The notes under the pieces: generated by a model | Database searches by the model: none | What the model saw: the letters and a program-made list of their open reading frames with translations, nothing else | Told to the model about the DNA's origin: nothing | Part shown: positions 16,093 to 54,500 of the stretch, piece by piece | Numbering within the stretch: the stretch's first letter is position 1 | How the letters are laid out: each line of letters starts with the position of its first letter | Program-made: the position numbers and the translations under genes | Assembly (NCBI GenBank): GCA_000004985.1 | Contig: GG738911.1 | Strand: one strand, 5' to 3' | Source: Naegleria gruberi | Taxonomy: Eukaryota | DNA: 64,000 nt

Positions 16093-16178
16093 TTTTTTTG
16101 GTTGTTGTTGCAGTTTAAAATTGAAAAGCGCGGGAATATTCAATATGAGGAACAATTTTTAAAAAAAAAATAAAAAAA

Positions 16179-31553: not shown

Positions 31554-31877
31554 GATGATGATGTATTCTTGATGTTTGAATATTTGTTTTTGAATTGGAA
31601 ACAATGTTGAGCTATGTGAAAGTGCGTTCTTAAAGAATTTAACATAATGGAGGAGGAATTTGCGCATATTTAAAGTTATTACCCCAATAATAACAATAGT
31701 GGGCCAAGGAGATCGTCATTATTAAATCACGCAATTCCTTGGTTACAAGGTTCACTCTTGTTTTAAATATCCTTCATTTTGTCCAATCGTCTTTTTTGTT
31801 ATAATTTCAAAAATGGTAATTTTCAAACTCTGTAATTTTAATGAGTATTCTTTGATGATGAAAATTGTGGAATGATA

Positions 31878-34800
31878 TTAAATACCATAGACAACGTTGG
31901 CCTTCTCAATGATTTGCATTTGAACATCTCTCACTGCCTTGAAATTAACATAATCTGGTGTGAAAACAAATCGAGAGAAGGTATCTCCCAAATTCATAAC
32001 CACCTGTCTCATCATTAATTCAAAACAATCCTTGACCATGCTATTTTCAATTCCAAGTTTTGATAGGGAATTTAAATCCAATAGCTCACAATTTGATTCG
32101 TCCAATTTCTTACATTTTTCATAGAGTTGAATGAATGCAGTTCTACTCTTTGATGGAATGTTAACTTCCATTTCTGCTCCAGTTTTGATGTACTTTTGGT
32201 AGATTCGGTCAGCAAAGAAGACTAATCCTCCAAGATTTTCACCAGATACCACATCTGTACTTGCTTTAATGTCAGAGAAGAGGAATAAATTTTCAGAGCT
32301 GAATTCCTTTTCACAAAAGTTTGCAAATAATTCATATCCTTCCTCAGATTCCAAAGTATTGTAAAGTTCTTGATTCATAATTTCATCGTTTTGCTTCTTT
32401 TGTTCTTCCTTTTTGGTTCTACGTTGTCTGAACTTGTAGACAAGAGCAACAATGAGTGCATAACCACCAAATACTAAAATATAGGAAATGACATAGAGTA
32501 CTTCAAAGATGAAGGAAATTGAATCAAATGTCAAGGCAAGTTTGAACATGGCCAAACTCTCAAATCTGTAAGACAAGCTGCTCAATCCAATAACTTGATT
32601 CAAGATGAGTAAAATGAAGGAAATAATATAAATGAACATTTCCATTCTGAAATAGAGAGGTCCATCCATTGAGGTAAACCAATGGAATGCTGTTAATAAA
32701 ATATTCTTATTGAGCTTCTTCTTTTCATTGATGTTTTCAGCATTATCAAGACTGAAAGTACTGGTAGGTTGTGAAAAGTTTACAGCTCTTCTTCTATTCT
32801 TCTTTTGATCAACTTCTTTCTTTGATGAGAGAATCATGTCAAGGATGGCGACAGCTGTAATAATCACACCAAATGTCAAAATACAAACTGTATAAGAAAC
32901 TGAAACAATGTAGGTATACTGTAATGAATCTAGAACTCCAGTTCTTCTCAAAATGACCCAAATAACCCAATAGACAACATTGACAGCAGCAAATATACCA
33001 ATCAATGAATAGAATAACACTTGTGAGGTTGCATACTTCAATGCTTTCAAAATTGTTGTACTTTGAGCTTGCGTTCTATTATCAGAGAGTTTCTTGTAGA
33101 GTAGTTTCATGAATTGGAATCTAAAAACTTGCATGACGTAACAGAAAATGGCTGTTAAATTGAGGGTGTTTACAATAATCATGACAATATTTGCAATGAT
33201 ATTGGCAGCAGCATCTCCACTTTCCCACATTTGACTATTTGCAGAATTCAATTGATCCACTAGAACAGATCTTTGTACAATATAAATCAATGTACATTCC
33301 ACAATTAATGCTATCAATCCAACATAAGGAGTAAGCAATCTAGAGCTCACAGGTTGAGACTTTCTCAAAACAATCAATCCAATCAAAATTGCACTTGCTG
33401 CAATCAAATAAATAATACCAAATGATATTTGGGCATAGTATAATGATGAAACTTGATCCTTGAGTTGAACGGTAAATGTTGTTGTCTTGGATTCAAGGAA
33501 AGTTGTAAACATGGTTGTGTGAGAACAAGCACATTCAATTGAGTTAGATGAAACTCTATGCAATGAACATCCATAACTGCTCCACATTTTGAGTTTCTCA
33601 TCCCAATACTTGCAATGATACGTACTGTTGGTAACAGTCGAATTGGAGATTATTGAGCTTGGAATAGTGGCAGCATTGAATGAAAGAATAAGAGGTGAAT
33701 CTAAATTATCCAAAACCAAGACATCTGTCTTTTTCATGAATTTGAAATCAGTAACAGAGGAGCTGAGGGTCATGTTACTAACTGAAGCATCATAATTTGT
33801 GTTCTTTGAATAAACTATCATTGTTGCTCCACAAGTCATTGAATAGGTGCCATATTTGGACATCACTGATGTCAAATTCATAGAAACCTTGCTTTCAGTA
33901 TCAGAAACGCTTTGCAAATTACTAGTTGGAGTTGGCACATTGAAACTAGAAACTGTAATATTAATGAGAGAAGATTTGTATGAACTTGTTGGTAAATCGG
34001 TTGAAGTAGAACTAACAACAGTTGGGATAGTTCCATAATAAATCAGAACAGTGACAAGACTAGCTGTCGATTTGGTTTTTTCAGAATCATATGAAGTAGA
34101 GAAGCAGTTTGAAATAACTTGAATTGTTTTGGAGATATCTGCACTGGAGAGGGATGATTTCACATAGCCATACAGAGCAAGTTCACTCAAATAAATGTCT
34201 GTCAAATTTGAAACAAATGAATCCACTTTGTTGATGACTAGACTGACGGTATCAGCTGTTAGTGTTTCATTATTGGATGTTAGTGTTTCCAAGCTTGATA
34301 AAGATGATGAAGGGTTCTTTGGATCAATTACTACATTAGAAATGAGGGCAGAGACCAATGATGACGATGCTGAACTTGTTGTAAAGGTTTGATCTACAGA
34401 GGCACCTAATAGCGACTCTCCACTCAAAGATTTTACAACTTCAATGTATTGCTCTTGAGTTCCATTAAATGGAGAGACTGTTACATTTGCTGATGCTTCA
34501 GTTTCCACATTTCCGAGGGCGTCCTTGACAAAGACAACCAGTGAGATTGTTTCTGTTGTTTCTAAAATACTTCTTGATTTGGTGGAAGAGCTTTCCGACC
34601 TAATGTAAGGTAAATAAGATGAGAAGGTAGTGTTGAGACTGTATTCAGTCAATCTAACAGACTCTGCCTTTGATTTATCATAATAACCAAATGCATATTT
34701 GAGTGGCAATAGTTCAGGTGATGTTGCAACCCATTCAGAAACCTGAATTGTAAACTTGTCATTCATTGAAATACCAGAGATTGGAGAAACGCTAACAAGA

Positions 34801-37800
34801 TTGGAAACACGTGTTGGAGGACTTGCAGAGGAGATAATTTGAATTTGAACAGAAGAGCTAATGTTTTGCTGCTTGCTATTGATAACTGTGAATGTGAACA
34901 AGACAGTCTCATTCAAATAGTTGGATGGAATGCTTGCTTGAATTGGAACTGATGGAGAAAATGATAATAGGTTAGTATTATCATATTTGGCCAAGACTGA
35001 ACCTGACCTTTTGTAAGAGAATACTCCTGCACTAACTTTCCATTCATAGGAAACCAAAGTTGAGCAATTTTTTCCACAACCTAAAAAGTATCTAATAGTA
35101 GTTGTGTTCAGAGTGATACTGTTAATAACAGTTGAAATGGTTTGATCTTGAGTACCTGAAACTAGAACAGATGGTAAACCAAAGCTTCCCAAAGTTGGCT
35201 CATTCAATTCATACTTGACTACTAATTTGAATTGTTGCAGGTTGGATTTTCTGCTTTGGAATGGTTGAATATTAGCAATGGATGCATTTGCAATGAAAGT
35301 GTAATTGCCTGCTTGAGTAACATCAGTTAATGTAGAGTTGATTAACAAACGATTGGATTCCACATAGAAAACCACATTTTGTCCATCACATTCAACACAT
35401 GACCAGGTGTAGGAAATATTTGGACTTTGGCTTAATACTTGATCTATTAATTGAATTTCCACACTGACAGTCTTGTTATCAAATTCCAAATAGACAACCT
35501 CTTCATATTTTGTAATGTTAATTTGGAATGGACTAATATTCACTGAACAATCCTTATTGGTGAATCCTTCAACACAAGAACAGTAATTTGGTGATACACA
35601 TTGTCCCTTTCCTGAGCAAACACTCGATTCGTTGAACAAGGTACCAAAGCAATTGTGCAATTCACATGTTTGGCCATAATATCCTGGTTGACATGTGCAG
35701 TTATCTGGAACAAAGCATGAACCATGACTTGAGCAAACGTTGGTATCATTAAAAAGAATTCCAAAGCAATTATGATTTGAACAATCAAATGAAAAATATC
35801 CTTCTTGGCATGAACAGTTATTTGGACTCAGACAAGTTCCATGTTTGAAACAAACATTTGAAGAATTCTTATGAACTCCAAAGCAATCATGTTCAGAACA
35901 TTCAGGTCCATAATACCCAGCTTCACAGAAGCAATTATTTGGAGATAAACATTGTCCATGAGTGGAACAAACATTAGAATTGTTAAATAAAGTGCCATAG
36001 CATTGGTGAGCTTCACACTGATATCCATAATATCCTGGTTGACATGTACAATTATTTGGAACTGGACATGAACCATGGCCACTACAAACATTCATTGTAT
36101 CATTGAATAAATGGCCATAACATTCATGGTTGGAACAATCAAATGAAAAATAACCGGTCTGACATGAACAATTATTTGGACTCTAACAAGTTCCATGCTG
36201 GAAGCACACATTCGAAGAATTCTTATGAACTCCAAAGCAATCATGTTCAGAACATTCAGCTCCATAATATCCAGCTTCACAGAAGCAATTATTTGGAGAT
36301 AAACATTGTCCATGAGTGGAACAAACACTTGAACTATTGAATAGAGTACCATAACAGTTGTGCAATTCACATGTTTGCCCATAATATCCAGCTTGACATG
36401 TGCAGATATTTGGTGAGTCACATGAACCGTGAGATGAGCAAGTACTACTATTTAAATGTTCCACTCCAAAGCAATTGTACAATCCACAATCAGATCCATA
36501 GAAAGGAACTAAACAACTACAATTATTATAGGCTGTACATGATCCTCGTCCTGAACAGACAGTTGAGGAATTCCTAGAAGCACCATAACAATCATAAATT
36601 TCACAATTCTATTTTCATCACATGTACAATTATTGAATGAATGACATTGACCGTGTGAGGAACAAATATTTGGATTGTTTGAGAGAACTCCATTACAAAT
36701 ATTAATTTCACAGAATTTGCCAGTATGTTGCTCATCACACTGACAAGTATCGAATGCTGTACAATTACCAAATCCAGTACACACATTTGTTTCATTTTTC
36801 AATATTCCACTACATTCGAATAATTCACAATCTTCTCCATAATAACCCTCTTGACAGGTACAATTTTCTGGTGAAGAACATGATCCATGTCCTGAACAAA
36901 CCATTGAAGAATTATTGATAATTCCATTACACATATAATTTTCACAATTATCTCCAAAGTATAACTCTGGACAAGTGCAATTATTCTTTGAATCACATGA
37001 TCCTACTCGAGAGCATACATTTGGTTGATCGAATCTAATTCCACCACAGTCATAGTACTGGCATTCAGATCCATATCTTCCTGCTTGACAATTACTACAT
37101 GTATTTGGTGAAGAACATGTTCCAAATCCACTGCAAACATTTGGATCACTTGGTGCAAGGCCATTACAATAATACAATTCACAAAATGTTCCTGAATATC
37201 CTGTTTGACATGAGCAAGTATTTGGACCAGTACATGTTCCACGACCATTGCAAACAGTACCAACTTGAGAATAGAGAATACTATTGCAATAGTAATTTGA
37301 ACACGTACTTCCTGAATATCCAGAATAGCATGAGCAACTATCTCGAGCATTACATGATCCATGTCCACTACAAGCACTCGATCCATATAATCCATAACAG
37401 AGATATTCATTACACTGAGAACCAGACCAAGTGTAGGTCAGTGAATTTCCAAAATACTGATTGGCTGTCCAGCAAACTTCCTTCTGGGCACCATAGAGTA
37501 CCAAATTACCATCTGATATTATCATTGATGATGTTGATGTTGATGGAATAAACAACTCACTCCATCATAACAATTCAATAGAAACTTACCTGATTGCATG
37601 ACTAATCTGAAAGGGGCTGTACCAGAGGTGCATGCAGAAGAAATTGTCTTTAAAACACCTCCCTGGTCTCGTATCTCAAGAGTGCCATCCAATGACAATA
37701 CTAAATTATACGGAGCTGTTCCTTGTCCATTAGTATCAGATGCCCAATAGGCAACCAATCCAGGTTTATAAAGCACCAAATTGCCATCCACTTGTTGTTT

Positions 37801-39107: not shown

Positions 39108-41021
39108 TTATGGAAGAGGTGAATTTTGAGAGGAAACTAAATTGTTTGTACTTGATATTGTCGACAATAGTTCAGAAGTTGATTCATTATTCACCACTGA
39201 TTGATCAATTGGATAGGCCATTTGTGAATTCTTGATAGAAGGCCTTCTGCTAGATTTCTCTTCCTTCTTCTCATCCCTCATTCCTTTCCATGTACATTTC
39301 ATCAATTCATAACATTTCATCACTCTATCAGTTATTCGATCTCCGTACATTATTCTAAACGATTCCTCATTCAAGGTAATGTAAGTACACGAACTGATGA
39401 GTGTTATCAAACTGGTATCGAGAAAGATATTTCTTGTAATTCCCCAAAATAATCCTAAAATGTCATAACCAAGAATGAATGTGAACAAGTTCAGGAAACA
39501 AACAATCAAGACACCAATTGACAAGATGGAAACAAGGAGAATAAACTTGGTGAAACGATATTCGAGAATTCCAGCATTCGAATCTCGTTTTCTCAAAGTT
39601 AAAAAGATTTTGAATCCATAAAACATAAAACCAATGACAAATGTCAATAAAAATAATGGAACTGAAGCTCCAAGTACAATCCATGCATAACCATAATCTG
39701 AAACTGTGGCGTAAACTATTCCAGAAATAATCAAAACTAAAATGACTCCCAAATAGAAAGCAATTAAAATTGCCTTATTAAGTTTGGACAAACCTTTGGA
39801 TCCTTGGTCTTTCCTTGTGGATATGTCAATCACGTGTGACCATGAAATAACCAATGAACTGTAGGCACAAACAACAAAGACTGCGGAGATTCCTCGGAAT
39901 AATCCAGAAAAGTAGCGATCATTGAAATCTTTGGTTTGGGAAAAGTTAAAAACAAATCGGAAAAGATTTTCTAAGCCACCACATAGACAACTCATACTTA
40001 ACATGATTGGAGGATGCATGACAATGTCAAAAAAGTGTTTCATCGTCTTTCTAAATTTGGAAAATAAAGCTGCTCCAGAAAAGGAAATATCTCTCATGGC
40101 CATTTGTCTAAATTTCTTAATTCTCTCAATCAACCTTGGTAGAAGAATAGCCCAAACAATGAACATGAACAATCCCTCGAAAATTATAAAGAAAATCCAC
40201 TGAACAGCTCTATAACTCAATGGAATAAAGAATAAATGATAAGCATCATTACAGTAGAAAGCAAACGAAAGTGAATTTGGATTTTGGTAATTACACCAAC
40301 ATAGAACAGGTAAGTGAAAAGGTCCTTGTCTTTTCAAATCAGCCAAATCTTCCCTAGAAATGCTATTGAAAAAGGAAAACATTTCGTATAGAGAAACATA
40401 TTTCGTATTCACAGTTTCGTTTCGACTTTTCTTATAATCTCCCAATTTTCCAACAAAGAACGGAGTAGTCAACATTTCATAATCAAACAATGGCAAATCC
40501 ACCATCTCCTCTCCAGTATTACATTGTCGTTTCAGAACCATTGTAAACTCAATCTCTGAAAATATTTGATTCACATCAAAACATGTTCCATTATTGTAAA
40601 TCTCCACAAATTCACCTCTATTTTCCATATGTTTACAATAAAGACAAGCATTCACAGCCGAATCCACCTGATCCAATTGTTCAATATTAGTCAAGTTCAG
40701 TAAAACTTGATTCATCTTGTTACAAAGAAGATCAGAACAAGAATTAATATCAAACTCTCCTAAAAGTTGAAATCTTTGCGAAAAACTTGCGTTTGTTGAA
40801 CAATATTCAAAAATTGTCGAGTCGAGTGAAAATAATCTTGGAAAATAGGATTGACTGACAGGTGGCAGACGCATTACTTCATCGACAGCCACAAGAACAT
40901 GATCAAGTTGTGGTAGCTGTCCTAGATGTTGTGTTTCGAAAGTTTGGCTTGTTGAGCTGTAACTGTCACTGATCAAGAGTGAAATGATTAACAGGACAAG
41001 TGTCAATGCAAATCGTGACAT
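39108..41021 (-). CDS. 7TM receptor-like membrane protein with a ~270-aa N-terminal ectodomain (GPCR-like; family not assignable by eye)
   Basis: Signal peptide MSRFALTLVLLIISLLISDS. Cys-containing, N-glycosylation-rich ectodomain. Seven hydrophobic helices (VQWIFFIIFEGLFMFIVWAILL ... LFWGITRNIFLDTSLITLISSCTYITL). Cytoplasmic S-rich tail. Confidence 0.6.
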   Translation of the reverse strand: MSRFALTLVLLIISLLISDSYSSTSQTFETQHLGQLPQLDHVLVAVDEVMRLPPVSQSYFPRLFSLDSTIFEYCSTNASFSQRFQLLGEFDINSCSDLLCNKMNQVLLNLTNIEQLDQVDSAVNACLYCKHMENRGEFVEIYNNGTCFDVNQIFSEIEFTMVLKRQCNTGEEMVDLPLFDYEMLTTPFFVGKLGDYKKSRNETVNTKYVSLYEMFSFFNSISREDLADLKRQGPFHLPVLCWCNYQNPNSLSFAFYCNDAYHLFFIPLSYRAVQWIFFIIFEGLFMFIVWAILLPRLIERIKKFRQMAMRDISFSGAALFSKFRKTMKHFFDIVMHPPIMLSMSCLCGGLENLFRFVFNFSQTKDFNDRYFSGLFRGISAVFVVCAYSSLVISWSHVIDISTRKDQGSKGLSKLNKAILIAFYLGVILVLIISGIVYATVSDYGYAWIVLGASVPLFLLTFVIGFMFYGFKIFLTLRKRDSNAGILEYRFTKFILLVSILSIGVLIVCFLNLFTFILGYDILGLFWGITRNIFLDTSLITLISSCTYITLNEESFRIMYGDRITDRVMKCYELMKCTWKGMRDEKKEEKSSRRPSIKNSQMAYPIDQSVVNNESTSELLSTISSTNNLVSSQNSPLP

Positions 41022-41489
41022 TTTTTTAAATTATGAAAAAGTTCGGTTTGACCTTTCGGATATGTTAGCGAGATCAAAGAATCCAAATGCCAAAACTTGG
41101 CAAGACGAAACTTGCAATTTTCATGGACACAAAAGTTTTTCTTCATGAAAAGTTGAGTCAGCTCAACTACTACATTGTGGACTGTGTGGTGAAACTAATT
41201 GTATTCTAATCTAAAGTTATTCGAAAGTTTCGAATAGTTACAATTAGAAGAACACAGAATAATCTTTGTAAGAATTCGAAATAGCATTTATTTACATTTC
41301 TGCAAATTTTCTCCTTTTCGTTCTCATCCAAATTTAGAAACATGATTATTTCAAATTTTACAATTTTGGAAATTTACATTAAGGTCATGTTTCTTCAATT
41401 GTAAACTTTCTCCATTCATTTCAGATAACAAACGAAATAAATTCGAATAGTTTGTTATCAATTCCTTTCCAATAACAAAAAAAAACAAA

Positions 41490-42443
41490 ATGAAAAAACA
41501 AATCATTGCAATCGCATTAATTCTCCTCTTGGCTTCAGTCTTTGTCTTGGCAGGTGACGTTGACAGTACAAGTGATAGCTCAGATTCTGTTGCTACCACC
41601 AAACCAGCAGAAATTCCAGTTGGTGAAAATTCTGAGAAGAAACAAGACGAAAGTTCTAAAAAGGAAAATCACAAGAGAGACGAAACTAATGGAAAAGACG
41701 ACTTTAAGGAAACCAAGTTTGATGAAGATAAGAAGAAGGATTCTGAAGAGAAGAAATCAGACGAAACTCATAAGAAATGCAAACTCGTTTGTGTTAAATT
41801 CAAGACTGAAAAGGGAAAGTGTTTGAAACACGAAATGAAAGATCAAGAAAAGGTTTGCATCAAACACAAGACAGAAGGTGAAGGTACATGTTTAGAATAC
41901 AAGCATTCCAAAAGTTGTGAAAAGTATTCGAAACCAACCAAGAAATGTATCAAGCACAAGAGCGAGAAAGTTTGTCAAAAGAAGAAAACTGAAAAGGTCT
42001 GCGATGAATATACCACCAAAAAAGTTTGTACTCGTCATGCTACTGAATGCGACCAATACACCACCAAGAAGAAATGCGAAACAGTTTCGTCCACAGATTC
42101 GTATTCCAAAAGTGGAAAATCTTGTAAGAATGTCAAAGTTTGTGCAAAGGAAAAGAAGGTCTGCAAGCACTACAAGAAGGAACAAGTTTGTAAGAAACAT
42201 AAGAAAGTTTCCAAATGTATCAAATTCAAGACTGAGAAGAAATGCATCAAGCACGAGCAAACCAAGAAGAAATGTTTAAAGTTTAAGAAATTGAAGAAAT
42301 GTATTAGAAAGTCAAAGGGAAAGAAGGTTTGCATCAAGCATAAACTTGTCGGTGGTAAGAAGGTCTGTAAGGAATATGAAAAGAAGAAAGTTTGTGAAAA
42401 GAAAGCTTGTGAAAAGAAGGAAGCAGATTCCTATTTAATGTAG
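41490..42443 (+). CDS. secreted, highly basic Lys/Cys-periodic repeat protein
   Basis: Signal peptide MKKQIIAIALILLLASVFVLA, then an acidic K/D/E/S-rich stretch, then about 20 Cys spaced every 10-13 residues in K-rich repeats of the form KxxCxKHKxEKxC (VCIKHKTEGEGTCLEYKHSKSCEKYSKPTKKCIKHKSEKVCQKKKTEKVCDEY...). No intron. Confidence 0.55.
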   Translation: MKKQIIAIALILLLASVFVLAGDVDSTSDSSDSVATTKPAEIPVGENSEKKQDESSKKENHKRDETNGKDDFKETKFDEDKKKDSEEKKSDETHKKCKLVCVKFKTEKGKCLKHEMKDQEKVCIKHKTEGEGTCLEYKHSKSCEKYSKPTKKCIKHKSEKVCQKKKTEKVCDEYTTKKVCTRHATECDQYTTKKKCETVSSTDSYSKSGKSCKNVKVCAKEKKVCKHYKKEQVCKKHKKVSKCIKFKTEKKCIKHEQTKKKCLKFKKLKKCIRKSKGKKVCIKHKLVGGKKVCKEYEKKKVCEKKACEKKEADSYLM

Positions 42444-42603: not shown

Positions 42604-44352
42604 TTATTCTAAATATCTAAATAAAAAATCCAATTCCAATAAACCTCTTCCAAAGCACATAATAATCAAGTCAGCAATCAAATATTTCTTCTTTCCAATT
42701 TCCACAACTTCGTCTCTAATATCATTAACAATAAGACTCAGAATAGATTCGCCTTCTTTTCTCATAGTGACAACTCTATACGATTCCACTAGCATTTGAG
42801 GATCAAGCTCTAAATTTTCCTTATCCATCAGACCTTTCTCCAACAATTGGCTGACGATAGAGTTTGCATTGAATGGCAACCATTTTTTGATTACTTCAAA
42901 AGATGAGGCAGTATGCCCTAAGGAGGTATGTTCAAATTTCAATCGGCATTCAAGGGAGCTTAGGAAATCAGAGAACTTGCACTTGAGAGAGCGATCAGGT
43001 TTTTGGAGCATTACGTGAACCGGAAAGTCAAATGCCAATTGACCATTCTTGCTCAATTCTGAGGGATCCAACAAGATATGGAAATCACCAAAAGAAAAAT
43101 ACTCTGCATATCTGCTTGCGCCCAAAGGTGGTTCCAATTGGAACAAACAATCTTGAGAATCATTATTGTTGAGAGCTTCTTTCAATGAGGAATTCATCTC
43201 GAATTTAGAAAAACTCTTCCATGCAATATGAGACAAATAATTGACCGTAATTGATTCGTACTCTCTTCTCTTGATAACATTGGGAAATCTAGCACCAAGG
43301 TCCTTCAATTGAGAATAAACCTTACGTGTTAGAGGTAGGTCAATTGAATGAGTTTCTAATACCAAGGAACAAACATAAATATCGTCTGAAGATATGTACA
43401 TAGTCTTTGAAACCTTGTCAAGAAACACATCTCCTGCTTTAAAGCAAATATCTCCAATCCAGATTTTCTTGATAATTGCATGAGTTGTCTTATCATAAAG
43501 AAACATATAGGTACTATCCCTCAAAACAAGATAATGATCCAATTCACCAACAAAACGCAACCAACACTGAAATTTGACTCGTTGTTCACAATTTGAGAAG
43601 TTTCTACCAGTGAATAATCTGAGCTCTGATGTTTTGTCCTCAGTTCTAGTATTAATCCACAATGCATCTCTATTAGAATCATAGGTTATAGAATATGTGT
43701 TTTCTAACCTCAAAGTATCAACAAAGTATTTGTGTTGTAAAGTACTTCCATCCAAAACATGAATCTGTCTATCATTCGAAAGAATGACTTCATTTCTGGG
43801 AAGTGAATATTCCAACAAATCAGCTTCCAGATTTGTAATTCCCAAATTCCTTCTTTGCAAAACGGTGAATTTCCCATTGGGATCGATTTTAGCCTTCACC
43901 AAGTCCTACACGATTAAATCATCTGGACTTTCGTCTGGAGGATTCTCCTGAACAATACACATTGGATAGAATGCAATAAGATCACCCAAATCACACCGAT
44001 GAATAAATTTCTTACTGTCCATGTCGAAGACATGCAGAAAACAATTCGAGTTTGGTCTATCACTACTTTCGGAAACTATTATCAATCGTTTCTTCATGTG
44101 GATTCTAAGGTCGAGGGTTGTCTCGATTTCTATTTGAAAAGTGTTCAGGTGAGATAGAAAAGCCTTCTCCAAGCATAGAAGAGTTGGAGTGGAAAGTTTC
44201 TTCTCCAACCATAAATGTGTGAAATGTTTCTCCAAGATTCCATCAATGAAAACTAAACGGACTGGTGCGTGAGAGTCAAGGCTTTTTTCAATGTTTCTGT
44301 ATTTAGCTTTAGGTTCGTAATCATTCACCTCAAAGATATGCTTTGTTTTCAT
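42604..44352 (-). pseudogene. family X paralogue with an in-frame TAG (43906..43908) splitting it into two same-frame ORFs; either a pseudogene or an assembly error
   Basis: ORFs 43906..44352 and 42604..43902 are in the same frame, separated only by TAG (...PDDLIV*DLVKAKIDPNGKF...). ATG at 44352. Conserved family blocks (YEPKAKY, VRLVFIDGILEKHF...KLSTPTLLCLE, LEPPLGAS and others) are present in both halves. Confidence 0.5.
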
Positions 44353-44576: not shown

Positions 44577-46391
44577 CTAATCCTCGTAAATGTCATTGTG
44601 GAAACTAAATACTTCTTTTTCGATAGCCAATGCCAATAAATCCATTAATAAATATTCCTTATTATTAAAGATCACCACATTCTTCCTGAACTTTTTCAAA
44701 ACCTTTAGCAAGTCTCCAAAATTAGGTGACAATGTAATATTTCTATAAACGTCCAATAACTTTCCAGAATCGAGCTCAAGAGTTTGTGGATCAATTAATG
44801 AATTATTATTTAAAGATTTGTACATTTCTTGCAAGTTAAATTTGATCTCTTTTGTATAATAATCATTTTCAAGACCCACACTAACGCATGGTTTTAAAGT
44901 GTCCAGAAAATCTGATAATTTACATTTGACAGTGAACTCTTGTGGTACACAAAGATACACTGGGAAATCTGTCAAATTCTTTCCGTTTTGTTGCAAATCT
45001 GATTGCAATACTGCTAAATGGTAATCATCGGGACTAATTGAGTTTGCACCAATAATGTGAACTTGATCAATTGGCAAATAATCGGATAAATACTCTAAAT
45101 CTGGTTTGATATTTTGCAATGCAATAGTAAAATCTATAGATTTTAGCTCGTCAACTACTTGCTTAAGGTCACAATCCACAAACTCGGAAATTACTGAAAC
45201 ATCCTTAAACCCCTTAAATTCTACAAGTTGTTTAAATCCAAAGTTCATATTTGCTAGAAAGCTCACAACGTTTGGCACATTATTTTCCCTCACAATCACT
45301 TGGGGTAACTTTGCTCCAAGTCTTTCCAATTGCAAACATATTTCCTCACCCAAAGGTTTATCTATAGAGTAAGTGTCTAATTTCAATTCTAATTGATACA
45401 CTTGCTCCTTACCACATGAAAATATGGTTTTAGAAACTCTATCGTATGCGTAAGCCTCCATCAGTACATCATCTCCAATTTTTTTGATAACCATGTGACT
45501 GGATTTGTCAATTAGATACAGACCGTCCTCATATCTAAGGACATGAAACTTATCAAGCTCCATTTCAAACATTAATTCCACCATCCCAATACGATCATCT
45601 TGTTCTACAGAAAATAATATTTCACTCTTTGCAAAGGTTGGACCATAATATTTTCTCACATAATGCTCCGAACTATGGCCATTACCAAACACTAACAAAT
45701 AATCAGAATGGGGATAATAACGAACAACATATTGTGCGTCATCATCAATAAATGTATACTTGAACACCAAGCTATCTCCATCAAATACTAGAATTTTTCC
45801 AAAGTTCACAACCATTAACTCATTTCTAGGTCCAATAAATTCCAAATTTGCACAAGTAAAGCTATCTGCATCCATTACTGGTTCTACTTCTTTCATAATT
45901 GGGAACTTCTGATCTGGATCAAGTAGAATTTTCATCAAACAATAATCTTGCGAAATAGTATACAAGATTTCTTTCCCATCACCATTTTCTACAATGTGCA
46001 TTGCTATCACATTTCCATGGAAATGATTAATATCATATAGAACATTTCCACTCTCTAAACAAACAATAAGAATTGAAGCCTTGTTGTTGGCGGCAAGTAG
46101 CCACCTTTTGGTGGGATGTATTGTTATGGATGGTATGCCATAGTCTTCTTCCGATAATTTAAAGGTTTTAAGAGTGATGAGACTAGTCTCTTCCAAACAA
46201 GTTATTGTTGGAGTGTGGAGTTTCTCCCGAAGCATTGAATTCGTATAATGATTCTCCACTCCATCAAGAAATACCAATCTTGTGAGATTTTCAGAGTCAT
46301 CATTCTCTTCATCATGAAGGCTTTCAATTTTCTTCTTTTTTAATTTTGGTTCGTGTTCGCTGATAGTTTCTTCAAGAAGCCTTGATTTCAT
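44577..46391 (-). CDS. family X paralogue
   Basis: Probable start MKSRLLEETISEHEPKLKKKKIESL, matching the MKS...EPKLKKKKIE start of the neighbouring paralogue. Conserved RLVFLDGVENHY...KLHTPTITCLEE, PLGEEICLQLERLGAKLPQVIV, YLLMDLLALA and other blocks. Confidence 0.6.
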   Translation of the reverse strand: MKSRLLEETISEHEPKLKKKKIESLHDEENDDSENLTRLVFLDGVENHYTNSMLREKLHTPTITCLEETSLITLKTFKLSEEDYGIPSITIHPTKRWLLAANNKASILIVCLESGNVLYDINHFHGNVIAMHIVENGDGKEILYTISQDYCLMKILLDPDQKFPIMKEVEPVMDADSFTCANLEFIGPRNELMVVNFGKILVFDGDSLVFKYTFIDDDAQYVVRYYPHSDYLLVFGNGHSSEHYVRKYYGPTFAKSEILFSVEQDDRIGMVELMFEMELDKFHVLRYEDGLYLIDKSSHMVIKKIGDDVLMEAYAYDRVSKTIFSCGKEQVYQLELKLDTYSIDKPLGEEICLQLERLGAKLPQVIVRENNVPNVVSFLANMNFGFKQLVEFKGFKDVSVISEFVDCDLKQVVDELKSIDFTIALQNIKPDLEYLSDYLPIDQVHIIGANSISPDDYHLAVLQSDLQQNGKNLTDFPVYLCVPQEFTVKCKLSDFLDTLKPCVSVGLENDYYTKEIKFNLQEMYKSLNNNSLIDPQTLELDSGKLLDVYRNITLSPNFGDLLKVLKKFRKNVVIFNNKEYLLMDLLALAIEKEVFSFHNDIYED

Positions 46392-46499
46392 TTTTTTGTA
46401 AAATATTTCCATTCCATTTAGGTAATTAATGGATGTTAATGTTTGATTGATGGACCATTTAAACAAGCTTTACCAATTACTGTTAAATAATAAATTGAA

Positions 46500-48368
46500 C
46501 TATTCATCATTCTCAGAGTCATAAAAAGTTTCAGTTTGGAATTGTATCAATTCTCTTTTTCCACTAGCTTGTGCCATGACTAATAAATCTACCAATAAAT
46601 ATTCCGTCTTGTTGATTGTTACAATATGTTCCTTGAGTTCTTGATTAACCTGGAGCAAAGTACTAAACTGAGGTTTAGTTGCTACATTTCTGTAAGATTT
46701 TAATAATATGGTAGGGTTGAGCTCTAAAGAAATTTGAGAAATTAATGAATTATTCTTTAAAGCTTCGTACACTTCTTGCAACTTGAACTTGAACTCTTTG
46801 GTATCGTCATCCCTTTTAAGTTTCACACTAATGCATGGTTTTAGAGTGCCAAGGAAATCTGATAATTTACATTTAAATATATTCTTTTCTCGAATAACTA
46901 AGATTGGAAAATCTGTTAAATACTGTCCATTTTGATGCAAATCTGATAGTAATACTCCTATACAATACTTATCGCACCGAACTGAGTGACCACCAATAAG
47001 AAACACTTCGTCGTTTGGAAATTTGGTTGGAAAAAGGCCCTTTAAATCTTCCTGTACAATTGTTTTAAAACTAAAAGAGAAATCATAATGTACACCTCTA
47101 ACCTTGTCAAGTCTAACAGGCTTGTTTTCAATTATTTCATAATACTCAGAAATTAGTGATTGGTTCGCAACCCCTTCAAATTGAAGTTCAGCGAACGGCT
47201 TTGGTTCCGACCTCATTTGTTTCAAAAAGCTCACTGCATTTGGTGTATTGCTTTCCTTAACAATTACTCGAGGTAAATTTAATCCAAGTTTTTCCAATTT
47301 TAAACAAACATCCTCTTCCAAAGGTTTATCAATAGAGTAAGTGTCTAATTGTAATTCTAATTGATAGACTTTCCTCTCCCTAGTATATCCAAATATTGTT
47401 TTTGAAGCTCTATCGTAAGAATAGTTTTCTATCAGCAAATCAGTCTCAATTTTTTGGAGAAGTAAATGGTTTGATTTTTCGATAAGAAACAAGTCGTCTT
47501 CTACTCTCATTACGTAAAACTTATCAAGCTCCATTTCGAACAGTAATTCCGCAAGCCCAATACTATCATCCAGGTCAACGTACATTACCATTTCACTTTC
47601 TGAAAAGTTTGGTCCATAGTATTTCCTTAACACATGTTCCGGGTAATTATTAGAAAATACGAATAATTGATCATGAATTGGATTATAATGAGTGTAGTAT
47701 GTTCGATACAATTCACTTTCACTTGCAAACTTCGTCTTCACGAAAAATTCACCGTCAAATACTAATAATTGGTTTGTAAAACCCACAAATAACTCATTCC
47801 TAGATTCAATAAATTTCAAATCTGTAATATCACCAAACTGTAAGAATGATCTATGGTTCAAAATTGGTAAATCCCTCTCTGTATCAAGTTTGATTTTTAG
47901 TACTTCTCTATGGCTATACAAGAAGACAATATCATTATCCCCATGCTCACTCTCCACAATACACATTCCATAAACATCATTATCAATTTCTAATCTAAAA
48001 CTGTGCAATGTTACTCCACTCTCCAAACTGATAATTTTAAAACCAATATGATCAGAATCATCTTTTAAACAAGTAACAACAAGCAACCATTGCTTTTTTT
48101 GATGTATTTGAATGCATGATATTCCATCCGATATTTCAAATGTTCTACGAACAACAAGTTTAGCCCCCTCCAAACAAGTCATCGTGGATGGATTGCAAAG
48201 TTTCTTACAAAGCAATGAATTCATATAATGTTTCTCAATTCCATCAAGAAACACCAATCGGGTGCGATCGTCATCATTATTTAGATGATCTTCAATCTTC
48301 TTCTTTTTTAATTTTGGTTCATACTCGTATTGACCATCATTCATTTCCTCATCATTGTGTGATTTCAT
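46500..48368 (-). CDS. family X paralogue
   Basis: MKSHNDEEMNDGQYEYEPKLKKKKIEDH start. Strong co-linear similarity to 44577..46391 (for example VFDGE, RKYYGPNFSESE, ELLFEMELDKFYVMR, YQLELQLDTYSIDKPLEEDVCLKLEKLG, FKCKLSDFLGTLKPC). Confidence 0.6.
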   Translation of the reverse strand: MKSHNDEEMNDGQYEYEPKLKKKKIEDHLNNDDDRTRLVFLDGIEKHYMNSLLCKKLCNPSTMTCLEGAKLVVRRTFEISDGISCIQIHQKKQWLLVVTCLKDDSDHIGFKIISLESGVTLHSFRLEIDNDVYGMCIVESEHGDNDIVFLYSHREVLKIKLDTERDLPILNHRSFLQFGDITDLKFIESRNELFVGFTNQLLVFDGEFFVKTKFASESELYRTYYTHYNPIHDQLFVFSNNYPEHVLRKYYGPNFSESEMVMYVDLDDSIGLAELLFEMELDKFYVMRVEDDLFLIEKSNHLLLQKIETDLLIENYSYDRASKTIFGYTRERKVYQLELQLDTYSIDKPLEEDVCLKLEKLGLNLPRVIVKESNTPNAVSFLKQMRSEPKPFAELQFEGVANQSLISEYYEIIENKPVRLDKVRGVHYDFSFSFKTIVQEDLKGLFPTKFPNDEVFLIGGHSVRCDKYCIGVLLSDLHQNGQYLTDFPILVIREKNIFKCKLSDFLGTLKPCISVKLKRDDDTKEFKFKLQEVYEALKNNSLISQISLELNPTILLKSYRNVATKPQFSTLLQVNQELKEHIVTINKTEYLLVDLLVMAQASGKRELIQFQTETFYDSENDE

Positions 48369-49292: not shown

Positions 49293-52200
49293 TTAATGTA
49301 AAGTTTCATCTTCTGGTTGAATTTCACTAGATACATCTTCACCAATGAAATTATCAGCATTTGCATTCAATTCTTCACTGGTCAAGACAGCAGATTCGTG
49401 ATGCTTTGCAGAGAGGAGGTAAGTTTGTGTCATTCCCTTGCCCTTAACTTCAATCATTCTCTCTTCGAATGAAAAGCCCAAGTCATATACTCTCTCATAG
49501 GTAGACCGAGAAACTTGAATTCTTCCTGGCTTGGAATTTGATTCCATTCGAGAGGCTGTATTGATTGAATCACCCCATAAATCATAGGCAAACTTCTTAC
49601 GTCCAATGACACCTGCTACAACTGGTCCAGTGTTGATACCAATTCTAATGTTAACTTGTTCTTCAAATCTTCCCTTTCTAAAGTTGGAATTGAAAGAACG
49701 AATCACTCCAAAGGTATCAATGGCAAACTTTAAGACTCTTTCAGGATGGTCTGATTGAGCATTCAAATCATGCAAACCACCTGCTGCAAAGTAAGCATCA
49801 CCAATTGTCTTGATCTTTTCCAAATGATAACGATCTGTCAAATCGTCAAAGCCCATAACAATTTGATTCAACATTTGAACCAATTCATTAGGAGCTAATT
49901 TTGAAGATAAACTAGTAAATCCAACCATATCTGAGAAAAAGCAAGTGATATCAGCAAATTTCTCGGCAATCAATGATGTGCCATTTTTAAGTTTTGCTGC
50001 CACTGCTCCTGGTAGAATGTTCAATAATAAAGTTTCAGAGTTTTTCTTCTCCTCAGCAAGGAGAGCATTATGCTATATTATTGTAAGGTTTTAAGATGAT
50101 TATTATAGAATAGAACATGTAAAAAAACTAATAAAAAGAAAACAAACCTTCTTTTCTGATGTAATATCCTTAATAAAGCATGTGATAATTGGTTTCTTCT
50201 CAAAGAGAGTTACAAAAATATTCATTTTGGCTGGGAATGTAGTTTGATTCTTTCTAATACATTCCACGTCAAAGGATTCACCCTTTGGATCAAATTCTGT
50301 GACAGTTTGTTTCATACTGTCTACAGCTTTTCTAATTTCATCATGATGTTGTGGACACAGGAGTGTAAACAGCAATTTACCAATTACATCTTCCTGTTGA
50401 TTTCCAAACATTCTTTGAGCTGCTGGATTGAAAATTTCAATATCACCACGATGGCTACACAAAATGACGCCATCAACAGCAGCATTTAAGATATTTCTAA
50501 CTTTGGCATCTTCTCCCCCAACATTTCTCTTCTTGACAAATAATCGAGATAGGGCACCATCGCTGAGAGAGTGATAAAGAGCATAATTTCTCAATTGTTC
50601 ATTATTTTCAAATGTTTCAATTGATAAATAATTGAATAAGGACCTTAGAGAAAAGACATTCTTCCAGTGTATCCTTAAAAAGTAGTACATAATTACACAA
50701 CCAATAAGGTTGACTGTAAATCCAACAATGGCCAAAGCTGTTATTTGAGTTACCATTGGAGTTGAGGATTTAACAGCAAAAATAAGTGAAAAGTCAATCA
50801 ACTTGAACGATGCAGTATTAGCCAAAAAAGCAACTGCATAAAATTCTTGCAAGATAACAAGCAAGTCTTGATAGTTGGAAGTTTTGGTTGTTGCAACCAA
50901 ATCTTCGATAATTCTTGAGGATTTGAGAATAGTATCCTGAACCATATAATCAATACCAAAATCACATTGTGTGTAATTGTCTGGTTTGTATCCTTTTGGA
51001 ATGACCATGGCATTGTATATTGAAGAGACAGATTCAATTGTACAATTCAAATCCCCACGAATCATGTGATCAGTTTCTGGAAACATACCGACAACTAGAG
51101 TTTCGTACGCCTTAACAGCAGAACCATACATACACAAATTCCAAAAGTATCTCAATTTGAAAACAACATAGTCAAAGTTAGTCCTTAGCACTTTGATATC
51201 AGATTCTGCGAGTATGGGTATTTCATCTAGTCCATAATTGTTCAACATATTTGTGGAAGAATGATAGAATTGTTCTGCAACATTGAAAGACAATCGTTGT
51301 AAGAATGCCATTGCATCAAAACCATCTTCCATGGTAATGTAAGATTCAAAACTGTACTTGGAATTTCCAAGAGTTTCTTTAAGGAAAATACCCAAACTGA
51401 CAGACACAGCAATCATTACAAAAATACCAATAATGATAAAGATATTCTTCGGTTTAAGAATGGAGGTCTTGGGAATATGAATAGAAACTTCATCACCAAC
51501 TTTCTTACCAAGATCATGGAAGAGTTTACCAACTTCATTCTTTGACACATGGGTGTGAATTAGTTTGATTTGCTGTTTCATTGTAGAGAGTTCAAATCTA
51601 CTATATAGCAGGTAAATTGTTGCATAAACCACATAGAACGCAAGAACAACAGATGTAAATATGGTAAAGGTGTCGTTAATTCTTAGGGCATCCTCCTTTG
51701 CAGAATCTGTAAAAACTCTGCAAAACTTTTGATAGGCATAAGTGATGGTTTCTTGATTTCTGTACATGAGCATAAACCCATAACTATTTAAACTATTCAT
51801 TAATTGGTCGTCTCCACTGTTAACCATTTGATCAGAAAGCTTTACAAGAACATTGGTAATATCAGTAATGGTCACATTTTCTGCCATGGTTTCGTTGTAA
51901 AACTTGGTTTCCATTGTTGCATCTGATTGCATTTTTGGAACATAGAAAGGATAGTAAAATTCATGGTAATGTGAGTAAACTGATGGATTGAATTTGGCAT
52001 CATAGGCCTTTTGTTGTAAATTAACCAAGATTTGTCTCAATTTTACAATGTTCTGTTTCAGCAATTTAGGGCTAAGGAACATTTCACTGGTCATTGTTTT
52101 TGGAATTGAAGAAGACGTGGAATTCATTAAATTTACAGTAGATTGATAGGCACGAACTGTTACCAACATATTTGACAATGCAGCTATTGGCGAACAAGCA

Positions 52201-54500
52201 TCAATCACGTTAATAACATTCAATGTAACGACATCTGAAAAGTTGAGGGCAATTACGATACCAGCAATTAAAAAGGCAAATCCCAACCCAGCAAATAAGA
52301 AAAAGATGGTCATTTGAATATTTCTTGGTGCTGGCACAGAAAGCGCATTTCTAAATACCATTTCTCTCTTTTGTTCGCCAGAAACAGTATTTTCAATACC
52401 GTTGAAATTGTCAAAACTATCCTCAATACTACTCATTGTTTCATAATTCATTTGTGAAAAGGATTGAGGGTTTTCTACGGTAAAATTGATAGCATTAACG
52501 GAGGCTTGAATCAACTTTCTAGAGTTATCAACTGTCTCAGCTGTTCCAACAGAATTAGAGTCTGGATGTACTCTATTCTTTCTTGCTAGTTTGGCTTTGA
52601 AAGCAGCACCTCTTTTTTGGAAGTTACCTTCATCTTCCTCAAGAGTCATTGCTTCATTAAAGTATTCACTGGCAAGGTCCTTATTAAACTTGATATTCTC
52701 CAAATAGTTAGCATACATTCTCAAGACAGTCTTGTCGTTATAGTAGAGCGATAGTAAGCTGTTGAACATGTTATCACACTCCTCAATGAGAACGGCATTA
52801 CGAGAAGCAATGCTTTCAATCTTTTCATAGTTCACTATCTCTTGCATTTGCTCCTTCCAAAAATGGCGATGGAGAGATGTAATCTCAAGCATGGATTTTT
52901 CAATCTTTGAAAAGGTAGCTTTAAGATCGATTGCATTCTTTTGTCCCCTTATTCCCTCAGTAGTAGAAGTTTCAACTTCTTTCAATCGTTGACCCAGTAA
53001 AAATCTCATGTACAAATTTGGTCGTTGCTTGATAGCCTTTTTAAGGAGAGCAAGTGCAAACGTGGACGCGTTCAATTCTTCTCCCATAAAGTAGGCAGCA
53101 ATGCATGCAGAGCTGTTCAAAATGTTTTGGTCACTGAAACCCTTCTGAGAGGAAATAGCCCTGATGAATGAAATGATAAACATCAAGTCTGCATTTTCTT
53201 CTTCATCCTTTAGCATTACTTCCACTCCCATTGTAAACCTCATGTACATGTCCATCTTGGAAAGGTTTCCATCGTCCTCAAGCTGTTGATAAATATTAAG
53301 GGCCTCTCTTTCAATGTTTTTATCTTGAATTGCTGTAATAAACTTCTTTCTCAGCTTTTTTACAATGATTCTTGAGTATATTTCTGCAATGACGCCTCCT
53401 AGAATTCCAAGAAGAACCACCAAAGCAAGAGTCATCATTGATAACCCCACACCCATAACATTATCATTGGTTGGATTAGCCAAACTTGTCACGAGACCAC
53501 CAATACTGGCACCAATACGAGCGCTTATTACCCCAGCCACTATTGAGTTCTCAAACCTTCTCATCATTGGGAAAATCTTGAATAGCAAGACTAATAATAT
53601 GAAGGAACACACCAGATGCACAATCGATCTAATGAATGCATAGTTGGCTGGTATTAAAAAGTGTACAAGCATGCCCAAAATGTTGCAAATAACTCCCAAA
53701 AGAGGAAGAATGGCACTATCTCCGATCATTGGGGTTGTGCTTAAGGGATGAGAATTTGGAAGCATGATTACAGTCAGTAACGCCTCAACTTGTAAGAGGA
53801 CAATGAATATTAAGGAGAGGGCCATCATGACAATGTTCCTCGTTTCAAAACATGTAACTGAATCAAATCTATTCAAATAGGATGTCGTAGTGGTCGTGGA
53901 GTTACTCAGCAGTGAACCAACAGCCACACTTGTAGATCCTTGTTGTTGCACCAAATTGTTGGTATTGTATCCATAGTCACAATCAACAAAGCTCGTGAAG
54001 ATGTAGGTCATTGGTGCAGAGAGAATAAGGAGAGCAAACAAGGAAATGTGAAACACATACTTCACATAGGGAATAAACTTGGAAGTGGATCTCACAGCTC
54101 TAATGGTGAGTGCAAAGGCTCCAAGAGCGAAAAGCACGAAAAACATTGAAATACTAGCAAGAGCAATGGCTCCATCATATGGAATAAGATCCAACGATAA
54201 ACTTGTTGTATAGTTCAATACTGTGAAAATCCAAGATCCCCAAACACCAAAGTTAAAGTGATGTGGACTCAGTAAGGGCATCCAAATAAAACTCCAAAAC
54301 AAGAGAATGTATAATGTAAGGGTCATGACAAATGTACGTGTTCCATGTCTTCTTGATGTGTTTTGTGCAGTGAATACAAAGGAAAGAAATTCAGTTCTAA
54401 CCTTGACTTGGAGAGAACTTGCCGACTCTGAGACAATGCTTTCAGAGTTTTGAGAACTATCCGAGCCAATAAAAGAGGCTCCAGCAATAGAACTTCTCAT
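49293..54500 (-). CDS. multi-pass membrane class III adenylyl cyclase with a PAS domain and a single C-terminal catalytic domain; two exons (50148..54500 and 49293..50072), 75-nt intron
   Basis: N-terminal about 1200 aa with many hydrophobic helices. PAS-like segment NILNAAVDGVILCSHRGDIEIFNPAAQRMFG. Cyclase domain FADITCFFSDMVGFTSLSS ... LEKIKTIGDAYFAAGG ... FAYDLWGDSINTASRMES. The Lys in EKIKTIGD and the Asp in YDLWGD are the ATP-specifying pair rather than the Glu/Cys of guanylyl cyclases. Intron is GTTTGT...ATATAG in phase 0; the track ORF tail VCFLFISFFTCSIL is intron read-through. Confidence 0.8.

Follow-up and report, generated by a model that had tools for sequence, protein, structure and literature searches.

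The window analysed here, a 64,000-nucleotide stretch of contig GG738911.1 from the Naegleria gruberi assembly GCA_000004985.1, contains at positions 41490–42443 an open reading frame (ORF) that encodes a Lys-rich protein with regularly spaced Cys residues, hereafter referred to as the ladder protein. The ORF is a genuine N. gruberi gene that is probably well expressed. It belongs to a multigene family that has so far been found only in Naegleria and in Naegleria-like environmental sequences. The product has no membrane anchor, and its signal peptide predicts entry into the secretory pathway. We tentatively favour a structural or matrix role outside the cell, with the cyst wall as the most plausible site; the protein would be disulfide-stapled and cross-linkable.

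The cysteine ladder

The ladder protein contains 24 Cys residues, all of which are located at residues 97–307. The initial annotation of this DNA, which had been made from the sequence alone, recognized the Cys ladder but counted about 20 residues. The differences between successive Cys positions are 4, 10, 12, 11, 9, 10, 9, 9, 9, 7, 9, 16, 6, 7, 9, 9, 9, 10, 9, 10, 12, 9, and 5, with a median of 9; 17 of the 23 gaps lie between 9 and 12 and six are outliers. The strict recurrence of one Cys every 10–13 residues that had been proposed is thus supported by 17 gaps, when both Cys residues are counted, but is overstated in view of the six exceptions. The Cys gaps have a coefficient of variation of 0.27, a regularity not attained in any of 100,000 shuffles of the region (mean, 0.91; minimum, 0.39), and the 14 gaps of 9–10 present in the ladder region were likewise matched in none of them.

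The residues flanking the Cys residues are also non-random, and the repeat unit can be described as K-[V/K]-C-[I/L]-K-[H/Y/F]-K-T-E. His, Tyr, or Phe occupies position Cys+3 in 16 of the 24 units (P = 4e-11; the whole region contains 20 of these residues), Val occupies Cys-1 in 11 units (P = 9e-7), and Lys occupies Cys-2 in 18 units (P = 2e-4), with Ile, Leu, or Val at Cys+1. Along the unit, beta-branched and aromatic residues alternate with Lys and Cys, from which a beta-strand around each Cys can be inferred. A search for tandem repeats at the DNA level detected only trivial short arrays, and recent repeat expansion can therefore be discounted.

The ladder region is preceded by a signal peptide of typical layout, in which MKK leads into a hydrophobic core of 18 residues and then VLA, with GD after the predicted cleavage site, and by a spacer containing 23 Asp and Glu residues, with a Ser/Asp-rich start and a single KR site at residues 62–63. 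The layout of residues 1–22 and the isoelectric point (pI) of the spacer, 4.8, bear out the initial description of a secreted protein with a signal peptide and an acidic spacer. Past residue 30, there is no further hydrophobic segment (maximum 19-residue Kyte–Doolittle mean, -0.35), and the C-terminus carries neither a hydrophobic tail of the glycosylphosphatidylinositol-anchor type nor KDEL. Residues 96–317 (222 residues) have a pI of 9.7 and contain 33% Lys and 11% Cys, and the corresponding values for the whole protein are a pI of 9.5, a net charge of +44, and 28% Lys; the pI predicted initially was near 10.

Coding potential and expression

Codon usage was scored with a table derived from 16 long ORFs in the window. 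The annotated frame obtained +0.36 bits/codon, whereas the remaining five frames obtained 0.08 or less. The segment encoding the acidic spacer scored 0.47 bits/codon, which is above the value for the whole ORF; the spacer is therefore coding, and the score argues against an unspliced intron. The preference of the ladder gene for synonymous codons ending in C or G is 0.50 (0.42 when Lys codons are excluded), which is the highest among 29 ORFs of the window, the others ranging from 0.17 to 0.47. For comparison, this preference is 0.66 for the ribosomal protein S24 gene of N. fowleri versus 0.35–0.39 for ordinary genes, and it is 0.47–0.48 for the genes of the ladder family in the contigs designated L002–L005. 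This codon bias suggests that the ladder gene is substantially expressed.

No protein identical or nearly identical to the ladder protein was found in a collection of 15 billion sequences. Because this collection includes the annotated N. gruberi proteome, this paralogue is apparently absent from the annotated protein set. The reference annotation of N. gruberi probably lacks members of this low-complexity family. No further paralogue of the ladder protein is present in the window.

A multigene family in Naegleria

When phmmer was run exhaustively against 1.84 billion cluster representatives (threshold, E ≤ 1e-3), 13 relatives of the ladder protein were identified. The best match was XP_044544590 from N. 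lovaniensis (E = 9e-16), and FDP41_004030 of N. fowleri and the soil sequence P0002 were matched with E-values of 8e-10 and 5.6e-11, respectively. In a profile search of the family, E-values as low as 1e-93 were obtained. The named members, all of which are labelled as hypothetical proteins, are NAEGRDRAFT_66117, 67458 (XP_002677436), 64508, 48501, 71888, 74241, and 64980 in N. gruberi; FDP41_004030 and FDP41_003065 in N. fowleri; and C9374_009239, C9374_000273, and C9374_012983/013759 (from cluster look-ups) in N. lovaniensis. Thus, at least seven, two, and three annotated members are present in these species, respectively, five of the N. gruberi paralogues being known only as members of 90%-identity clusters. 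The remaining relatives are unnamed sequences from soil and other environmental metagenomes. The initial annotation had placed the gene in a dictyostelid context; this is not tenable, as all of the named homologues are from Naegleria, and ORF 30198–31667 of the window matches NAEGRDRAFT_74130 of N. gruberi, which is located on a 261,328-bp scaffold, with 100% identity across 92% of the ORF.

A metagenome scan yielded four further contigs (L004–L007), each containing one complete intronless gene of the family, and L004 was matched by tblastn with an E-value of 3e-32. A metagenome search using the ladder protein alone found no close relative. The four contigs (Ga0115593 contigs) are 1.1–1.3 kb in length, are derived from a single environmental sample, and have short flanks, with an A-rich 3' end on L004. 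They look like transcripts, in which case members of the family would be expressed in nature. A word-index protein search with the ladder protein returned no match at E ≤ 0.01, although relatives were found by phmmer; P0002, for example, was missed even though it shares the 9-mer KYSKPTKKC with the query. Negative results of the word-index search are therefore unreliable for Lys-rich, low-complexity queries.

In two alignments (A1 and A2) and in the family alignment, the members are collinear and consist of an N-module and a C-module joined by a variable centre. In the N-module, C123, G130, G132, C134, Y137, K138, and C143, together with C153, C162, C171, C180, C187, and C196, are invariant in A2. 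In total, 13 Cys residues are invariant in A2, and all 24 Cys residues of the ladder protein are located in Cys columns of the family. Two signature blocks characterize the family, namely K-C-x-K-Y-S-K-P/S-x-x-x-C and G-x-K-V/I-C-x-K-x-x-x-V-G-G-K-K-x-C. The identity of single units is retained between species, as exemplified by KCDKYSKPTKKC and KGxKVCxKxxxVGGKKxC. The protein is therefore not the simple repeat protein that had initially been assumed: each unit is individually conserved in a collinear alignment, no recent tandem array is present, and the units form an ordered multi-unit domain rather than a series of interchangeable repeats.

Among 11 members, the most frequent Cys gap is 9 (167 of 345 gaps), and Cys+3 is aromatic in 54% of the units, compared with a background of 16%. 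All members that were checked have pI values of 9.2–10.7, and the full-length ones begin with a signal peptide. The family composition is 20–28% Lys and 9–11% Cys, with Tyr contents of up to 11.6% in the paralogues. A D-S/T-Y motif occurs in the family at three sites, i.e. ahead of the first Cys, in the region joining the two modules, and within the tail, where one to four copies are present in different paralogues in the form of KVDTYKPP. In the ladder protein, DSY is found in the linker (residues 204–206) and in the tail (residues 313–315), whereas the N-terminal copy has degenerated to VDST and the tail lacks a repeat array.

The identity of the ladder protein to its homologues is 31–47% overall, and its nearest relatives are those of a short subfamily (P0002, P0004, NAEGRDRAFT_67458, and L004; 36–44% identity). 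It lacks a central region of approximately 100–150 residues, in place of which there is a short linker, and is richer in Lys and poorer in Tyr and Trp than the homologues. The DSY motif of this linker aligns with DSY/DKY of P0009 and P0002, and the same motif is present in the protein encoded by L004. The C-module was aligned to those of P0003, P0004, P0008, P0009, P0010, and P0012, among others. The 73-residue acidic spacer is specific to this paralogue and is missing from all homologues in the three alignments. In two environmental members, P0011 and P0015 (713–742 residues), the ladder domain is located behind a different N-terminal region of approximately 375 residues, which is Cys/Pro-rich, contains repeats of the C-P-x-x-x-x-C or CPAGKKR type, and has no Pfam match.

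Searches against Pfam detected no family at E ≤ 1 for the ladder protein and only scattered, unrelated sub-threshold matches (E = 0.05–0.4) for 15 homologues, whereas EGF models readily matched other ORFs of the same window; the earlier statement that the Cys spacing is neither EGF-like nor follistatin-like is consistent with this result. Profile and single-sequence searches of the PDB gave no match at E ≤ 1 or E ≤ 10. AlphaFold2 models had predicted local distance difference test (pLDDT) scores of 40 (single sequence) and 39 (alignment of 10 sequences) and a predicted template modelling score of about 0.15, and a Foldseek search of the PDB with the low-confidence model detected nothing. A literature search using 16 locus tags and accessions of the family found no mention of it. 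The initial annotation had singled out homology to a characterized family with the same repeat unit as evidence against its reading; the relatives that were found are all uncharacterized, and the family has no homology to any described family.

A possible role in the cyst wall

Several features of the gene and its family point to an extracellular structural protein: the signal peptide, the absence of an anchor, and the codon bias suggestive of high expression; the occurrence of the protein in a lineage-specific multigene family with a conserved order of units; the Tyr-Lys-Pro tails of the paralogues, which vary in copy number; and the parallel offered by the cyst wall of Acanthamoeba (PMC6541295). 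In addition, the conserved identity of each unit argues against a polyprotein composed of interchangeable peptides. The abundant cyst-wall proteins of Acanthamoeba castellanii are extracellular wall components that bind glycopolymers; they include Jonah-1, which has a Thr/Lys/Cys-rich domain, and the Leo lectins, which form multigene families with 8-Cys domains unique to the lineage and basic spacers in which Thr, Lys, and His are abundant (PMC6541295). These proteins and the ladder family are alike in being lineage-restricted, Cys-rich multigene families with signal peptides and basic, low-complexity regions rich in Thr, Lys, Cys, and His, but two 8-Cys domains are present in the former, whereas the Naegleria proteins have a C-x8-C ladder of 24–40 Cys residues. 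No homology between the two was detected, as the phmmer and profile searches gave only Naegleria and environmental matches.

Two further groups of proteins provide analogies. The oocyst wall proteins of the COWP type in Cryptosporidium and coccidia, in which Cys residues are regularly spaced by approximately 10–12 residues, are believed to build a wall matrix linked by disulfide bonds. Like the ladder protein, they are secreted and contain long arrays of regularly spaced Cys residues, but their repeats are longer, composite units that contain His and are not Lys-rich. No homology to COWP was found in the exhaustive phmmer search or in Pfam, with no direct pairwise comparison having been made. 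Proteins rich in Tyr, Lys, and Pro that are cross-linked oxidatively include the plant proline-rich proteins with PPVYK repeats, mussel foot protein 1 (AKPSYPPTYK), and the Cys/Tyr/Lys-rich mfp-6. By analogy only, these resemble the paralogues with variable numbers of KVDTYKPP in their tails, which have a basic composition with much Lys, Tyr, and Cys; the ladder protein differs from them in having two D-S-Y motifs and no repeat array.

The mature protein is a polycation of about 24 short units of approximately nine residues. Within the unit, positions -1, +1, +3, and +5 are occupied by beta-branched or aromatic residues (Val, Ile/Leu, His/Tyr/Phe, and Thr) and positions -2, 0, +2, and +4 by Lys, Cys, Lys, and Lys. 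In the arrangement that we propose, each unit would form a short beta-strand. With a period of nine and a two-residue turn, Cys(i) would lie opposite Cys(i+9) at a non-hydrogen-bonded site, which is the preferred geometry for cross-strand disulfides. Disulfides between Cys(i) and Cys(i+9) would staple adjoining strands; 12 could be formed in all, because the number of Cys residues is even and full pairing is possible. The result would be a protease-resistant chain of about 12 stapled hairpins with one Lys-rich face and one aromatic/beta-branched face. In both of the low-confidence AlphaFold models, hairpins place C153/C162 and C171/C180 face to face across two-residue turns, and two consecutive Cys columns have been lost together in the short subfamily. 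Correlated gains and losses of Cys columns within the family hint at partners, e.g. the 'CC' doublets, of which the N- and C-modules contain two, but they represent only one or two evolutionary events and were not used as evidence.

The aromatic face, together with the positive charge, would bind glycopolymers of the wall or acidic partners, and disulfide exchange, together with oxidative cross-links through Tyr in the conserved D-S/T-Y(-K-P) motifs, would fix the protein in position. Relative to its paralogues, the ladder protein has lost most of its Tyr and Trp residues as well as the central region and has gained the acidic, Ser/Asp-rich N-terminal spacer. It may thus be a specialized variant, e.g. 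a charge-masked or phospho- or glyco-modified one.

Several observations weigh against this role or against the proposed fold. Models with pLDDT values of 39–40 are unreliable, and the pattern of hairpins and disulfides is therefore a hypothesis. In several paralogues, the count of Cys residues left in the sequence after removal of the signal peptide is odd, and complete intramolecular pairing is thus impossible in them. The ladder protein itself contains 2.5% Tyr, no Trp, and only two D-S-Y motifs, so that the arguments from cross-linking and glycan binding suit the paralogues better; taken on its own, it is an uncharacterized paralogue whose function is only inferred. Finally, no expression or proteomic record was located in the literature for any member of the family, and the missing proteomic matches are uninformative because a Lys content of 33% results in very short tryptic peptides. 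FDP41_004030 and FDP41_003065 are not listed in the supplementary tables of three studies of N. fowleri trophozoites, which lends weak support to a wall protein.

Naegleria withstands environmental stress as a cyst, and one of its species, N. fowleri, is a lethal pathogen. Wall or matrix components may reasonably be sought in a presumably abundant, secreted multigene family that is specific to Naegleria and has no relatives elsewhere; alternatively, such a family could represent a new multi-hairpin polycation, and it would serve as a Naegleria-specific marker.

Alternative functions

The main rival to a structural role, an antibacterial or prey-binding polycation, seems unlikely to us but has several points in its favour. 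According to this explanation, stapled cationic hairpins would be sent to phagosomes or secreted and would bind and permeabilize or agglutinate the negatively charged bacteria on which Naegleria feeds, either as the intact protein or as cleaved hairpin peptides, with the spacer acting as a charge-masking pro-region. Tachyplesin, protegrin, arenicin, and thanatin are cationic, disulfide-stapled beta-hairpin antimicrobial peptides of 17–25 residues that are released from precursors. The Lys-flanked C-x8-C units of the ladder protein recall such peptides, and units such as KKCIKHKSEKVCQKK match them in size, charge, and C-x8-C bracket. The net charge of the protein (+44 overall and +34 in the C-module) and the presence of an acidic pro-region with one KR site ahead of the cationic part fit this explanation as well. 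Furthermore, the family is larger in the bacterivorous N. gruberi (at least eight copies) than in N. fowleri (two to three copies), and the codon bias of the ladder gene is near that of the saposin-like (naegleriapore-like) ORFs of the window. The protein differs from the hairpin peptides, however, in that approximately 12 putative hairpins are concatenated, each of which is individually conserved. There are no regularly spaced processing sites between the units, and the conservation of unit order over the full length is typical of a single folded or ordered protein. The charge of the spacer (-7) is insufficient against +50, and no other member of the family contains the spacer. Tyr-Lys-Pro repeats such as those in the paralogue tails are foreign to antimicrobial peptides, and the absence of the two N. 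fowleri members from the trophozoite tables also speaks weakly against this function.

A bolder version of the wall hypothesis, which we consider improbable, is that the family represents an undescribed architecture, i.e. a long beta-meander with a central Cys in each strand, a continuous disulfide ladder, and one face made up entirely of Lys and another that is aromatic, that serves as the main building block of the Naegleria cyst wall or as a glycopolymer-binding lectin. If true, it would provide the first molecular handle on the cyst wall of Naegleria, including that of the pathogen N. fowleri, and a possible target for diagnosis or disinfection. A ladder with one Cys per nine residues in a C-x-K-aromatic register has no solved representative and is not modelled by AlphaFold, which marks a gap in fold space.

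It is quite improbable that the protein is an adhesive or an extracellular coat of trophozoites, serving as a cement for surface attachment by analogy with underwater adhesive proteins rich in Lys, Tyr, and Cys. The composition of the family (20–28% Lys, 9–11% Cys, and up to 11.6% Tyr in the paralogues) and the KVDTYKPP tails would suit such a cement, the protein appears to be secreted, soluble, and unanchored, and the codon bias indicates high expression. The ladder protein itself is nevertheless Tyr-poor, and the missing entries for the two N. fowleri members in the trophozoite tables speak weakly against a trophozoite function.

Metal binding is the least likely of the functions listed in the initial annotation: a secreted, metallothionein-like chelator using C-x-K-H units could draw on 24 Cys and 11 His residues, with His at Cys+3 in seven of the 24 units, but it is highly improbable, because Cys+3 is Tyr, Trp, or Phe in most units of the homologues and His is not conserved, the ladder protein contains neither C-x-C nor C-C clusters, the signal peptide would direct the protein to an oxidizing compartment in which an even number of Cys residues is expected to be present as disulfides, and the aromatic residues and the length of 317 residues are atypical of metallothioneins. 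Equally remote is the explanation that the ORF is not a gene but arose by chance in low-complexity DNA rich in AAG/AAA or represents a pseudogene copy in decay, for which the missing entry in the 15-billion-sequence collection, suggesting that annotators made no call, can be cited, since the frame is intact from ATG to TAG and begins with a canonical signal peptide, its frame-specific codon score exceeds that of its neighbours, the Cys spacing and flanking residues are retained in homologues at 31–47% identity, the periodicity is unexplained by a tandem DNA repeat, and an AATAAA sequence follows the stop codon.

Genomic context

The positions of the ladder gene, its parts, and adjacent features are listed in Table 1. 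The window has a GC content of 34% and is gene-dense, with long ORFs in which all three stop codons are used; the domains identified include kinase, EGF, RGS, PAS, TmcB-TPR, saposin, and GT61 domains. A ciliate origin, e.g. from Stentor or Blepharisma, with an alternative genetic code or 15-nt introns, was discarded, given the use of all three stop codons and the lack of enrichment of GTA-N9-TAG motifs.

Table 1. Coordinates of the ladder gene and its segments, flanking elements, and the orphan gene clusters in the window
Feature	Position	Strand	Remarks
Complete intronless coding sequence, Lys-rich cysteine-ladder protein	41490..42443	+	317 codons and TAG; ORF translation
Signal peptide, residues 1–22 (MKKQIIAIALILLLASVFVLAG)	41490..41555	+	Predicted cleavage after VLA; sequence and hydropathy scan
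Acidic mixed-charge spacer, residues 23–95	41556..41774	+	pI 4.8, net -7
N-terminal cysteine-ladder module, residues 96–196	41775..42077	+	12 Cys, net +16; collinear with family N-module
Linker, residues 197–211 (ETVSSTDSYSKSGKS)	42078..42122	+	Conserved D-S-Y motif; family alignment
C-terminal cysteine-ladder module, residues 212–307	42123..42410	+	Signature KGKKVCIKHKLVGGKKVCKEYEKKKVC; 12 Cys, 40 Lys, net +34
C-terminal tail EKKEADSYLM and stop codon	42411..42443	+	One D-S/T-Y tail motif
Candidate polyadenylation signal AATAAA	42528..42533	+	85 nt past stop codon; read from sequence
AT-rich intergenic region (468 bp) before ladder gene	41022..41489		Coordinates; presumably contains both promoters
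Orphan-family cluster 1	42604-44352, 44577-46466, 46500-48368	all -	
Orphan-family cluster 2	14395-16155 (-), 16179-17867 (+), 17911-19740 (+)		

The divergent neighbour of the ladder gene (39108–41021, minus strand) encodes a 637-residue protein with a signal peptide, an N-terminal domain of approximately 270 residues, and no Pfam match. Five strong hydrophobic segments were detected in it by a scan, and two weaker candidates were picked by eye, making a seven-transmembrane (7TM) topology plausible. The divergent arrangement with a 7TM receptor-like gene that had been noted before thus holds across the 468-bp intergenic region. Behind the N. fowleri homologue and behind the family gene of a Naegleria-like metagenome contig, the next gene encodes ankyrin repeats rather than a 7TM protein; the 7TM gene is therefore not a conserved partner, and a functional link between the two genes is unsupported.

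On the other side, the next gene (42604–44352, minus strand) is convergent and ends 160 nt past the stop codon of the ladder gene. It belongs to a six-copy orphan family of proteins of approximately 600 residues that have no significant Pfam match, share 21–45% pairwise identity, and are arranged in two clusters of three genes. The copy adjoining the ladder gene has an in-frame TAG at 43903–43905 with no obvious tiny intron; this copy may be a pseudogene or be spliced unusually, or the TAG may stem from a sequencing error.

Two adjacent plus-strand ORFs at 6102–6806 and 6809–7156, which are split only by a stop codon, encode SapB_1, SapB_2, and Saposin domains, and their preference for codons ending in C or G is second only to that of the ladder gene in the window. 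We take them to be probably one multi-saposin precursor of the naegleriapore type. EGF domains are found in several other products: a 1405-residue protein encoded at 31878–36095 (minus strand) has N-terminal EGF/teneurin-type repeats and a C-terminal RGS domain, an EGF-rich ORF with 12.7% Cys is located directly upstream of it on the same strand (36509–37555), and another EGF protein is encoded at 21902–24670. In the 1465-residue protein encoded at 50103–54500 (minus strand), TmcB-type TPR repeats are combined with a PAS domain at the C-terminus. Runs of N at 3300–3368 (69 bases) and 56171–56385 (215 bases) represent assembly gaps, the latter of which interrupts long minus-strand ORFs at 54918–59875. 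At the junction of ORFs 20472–21095 and 21099–21863, the sequence GTAAGTTTTCATGTTAG (21079–21095, plus strand) contains a GTAAGT donor and resembles the beginning of a short spliceosomal intron that would unite the two ORFs into one gene; a longer version of this intron could end with ...CAACAACAG.

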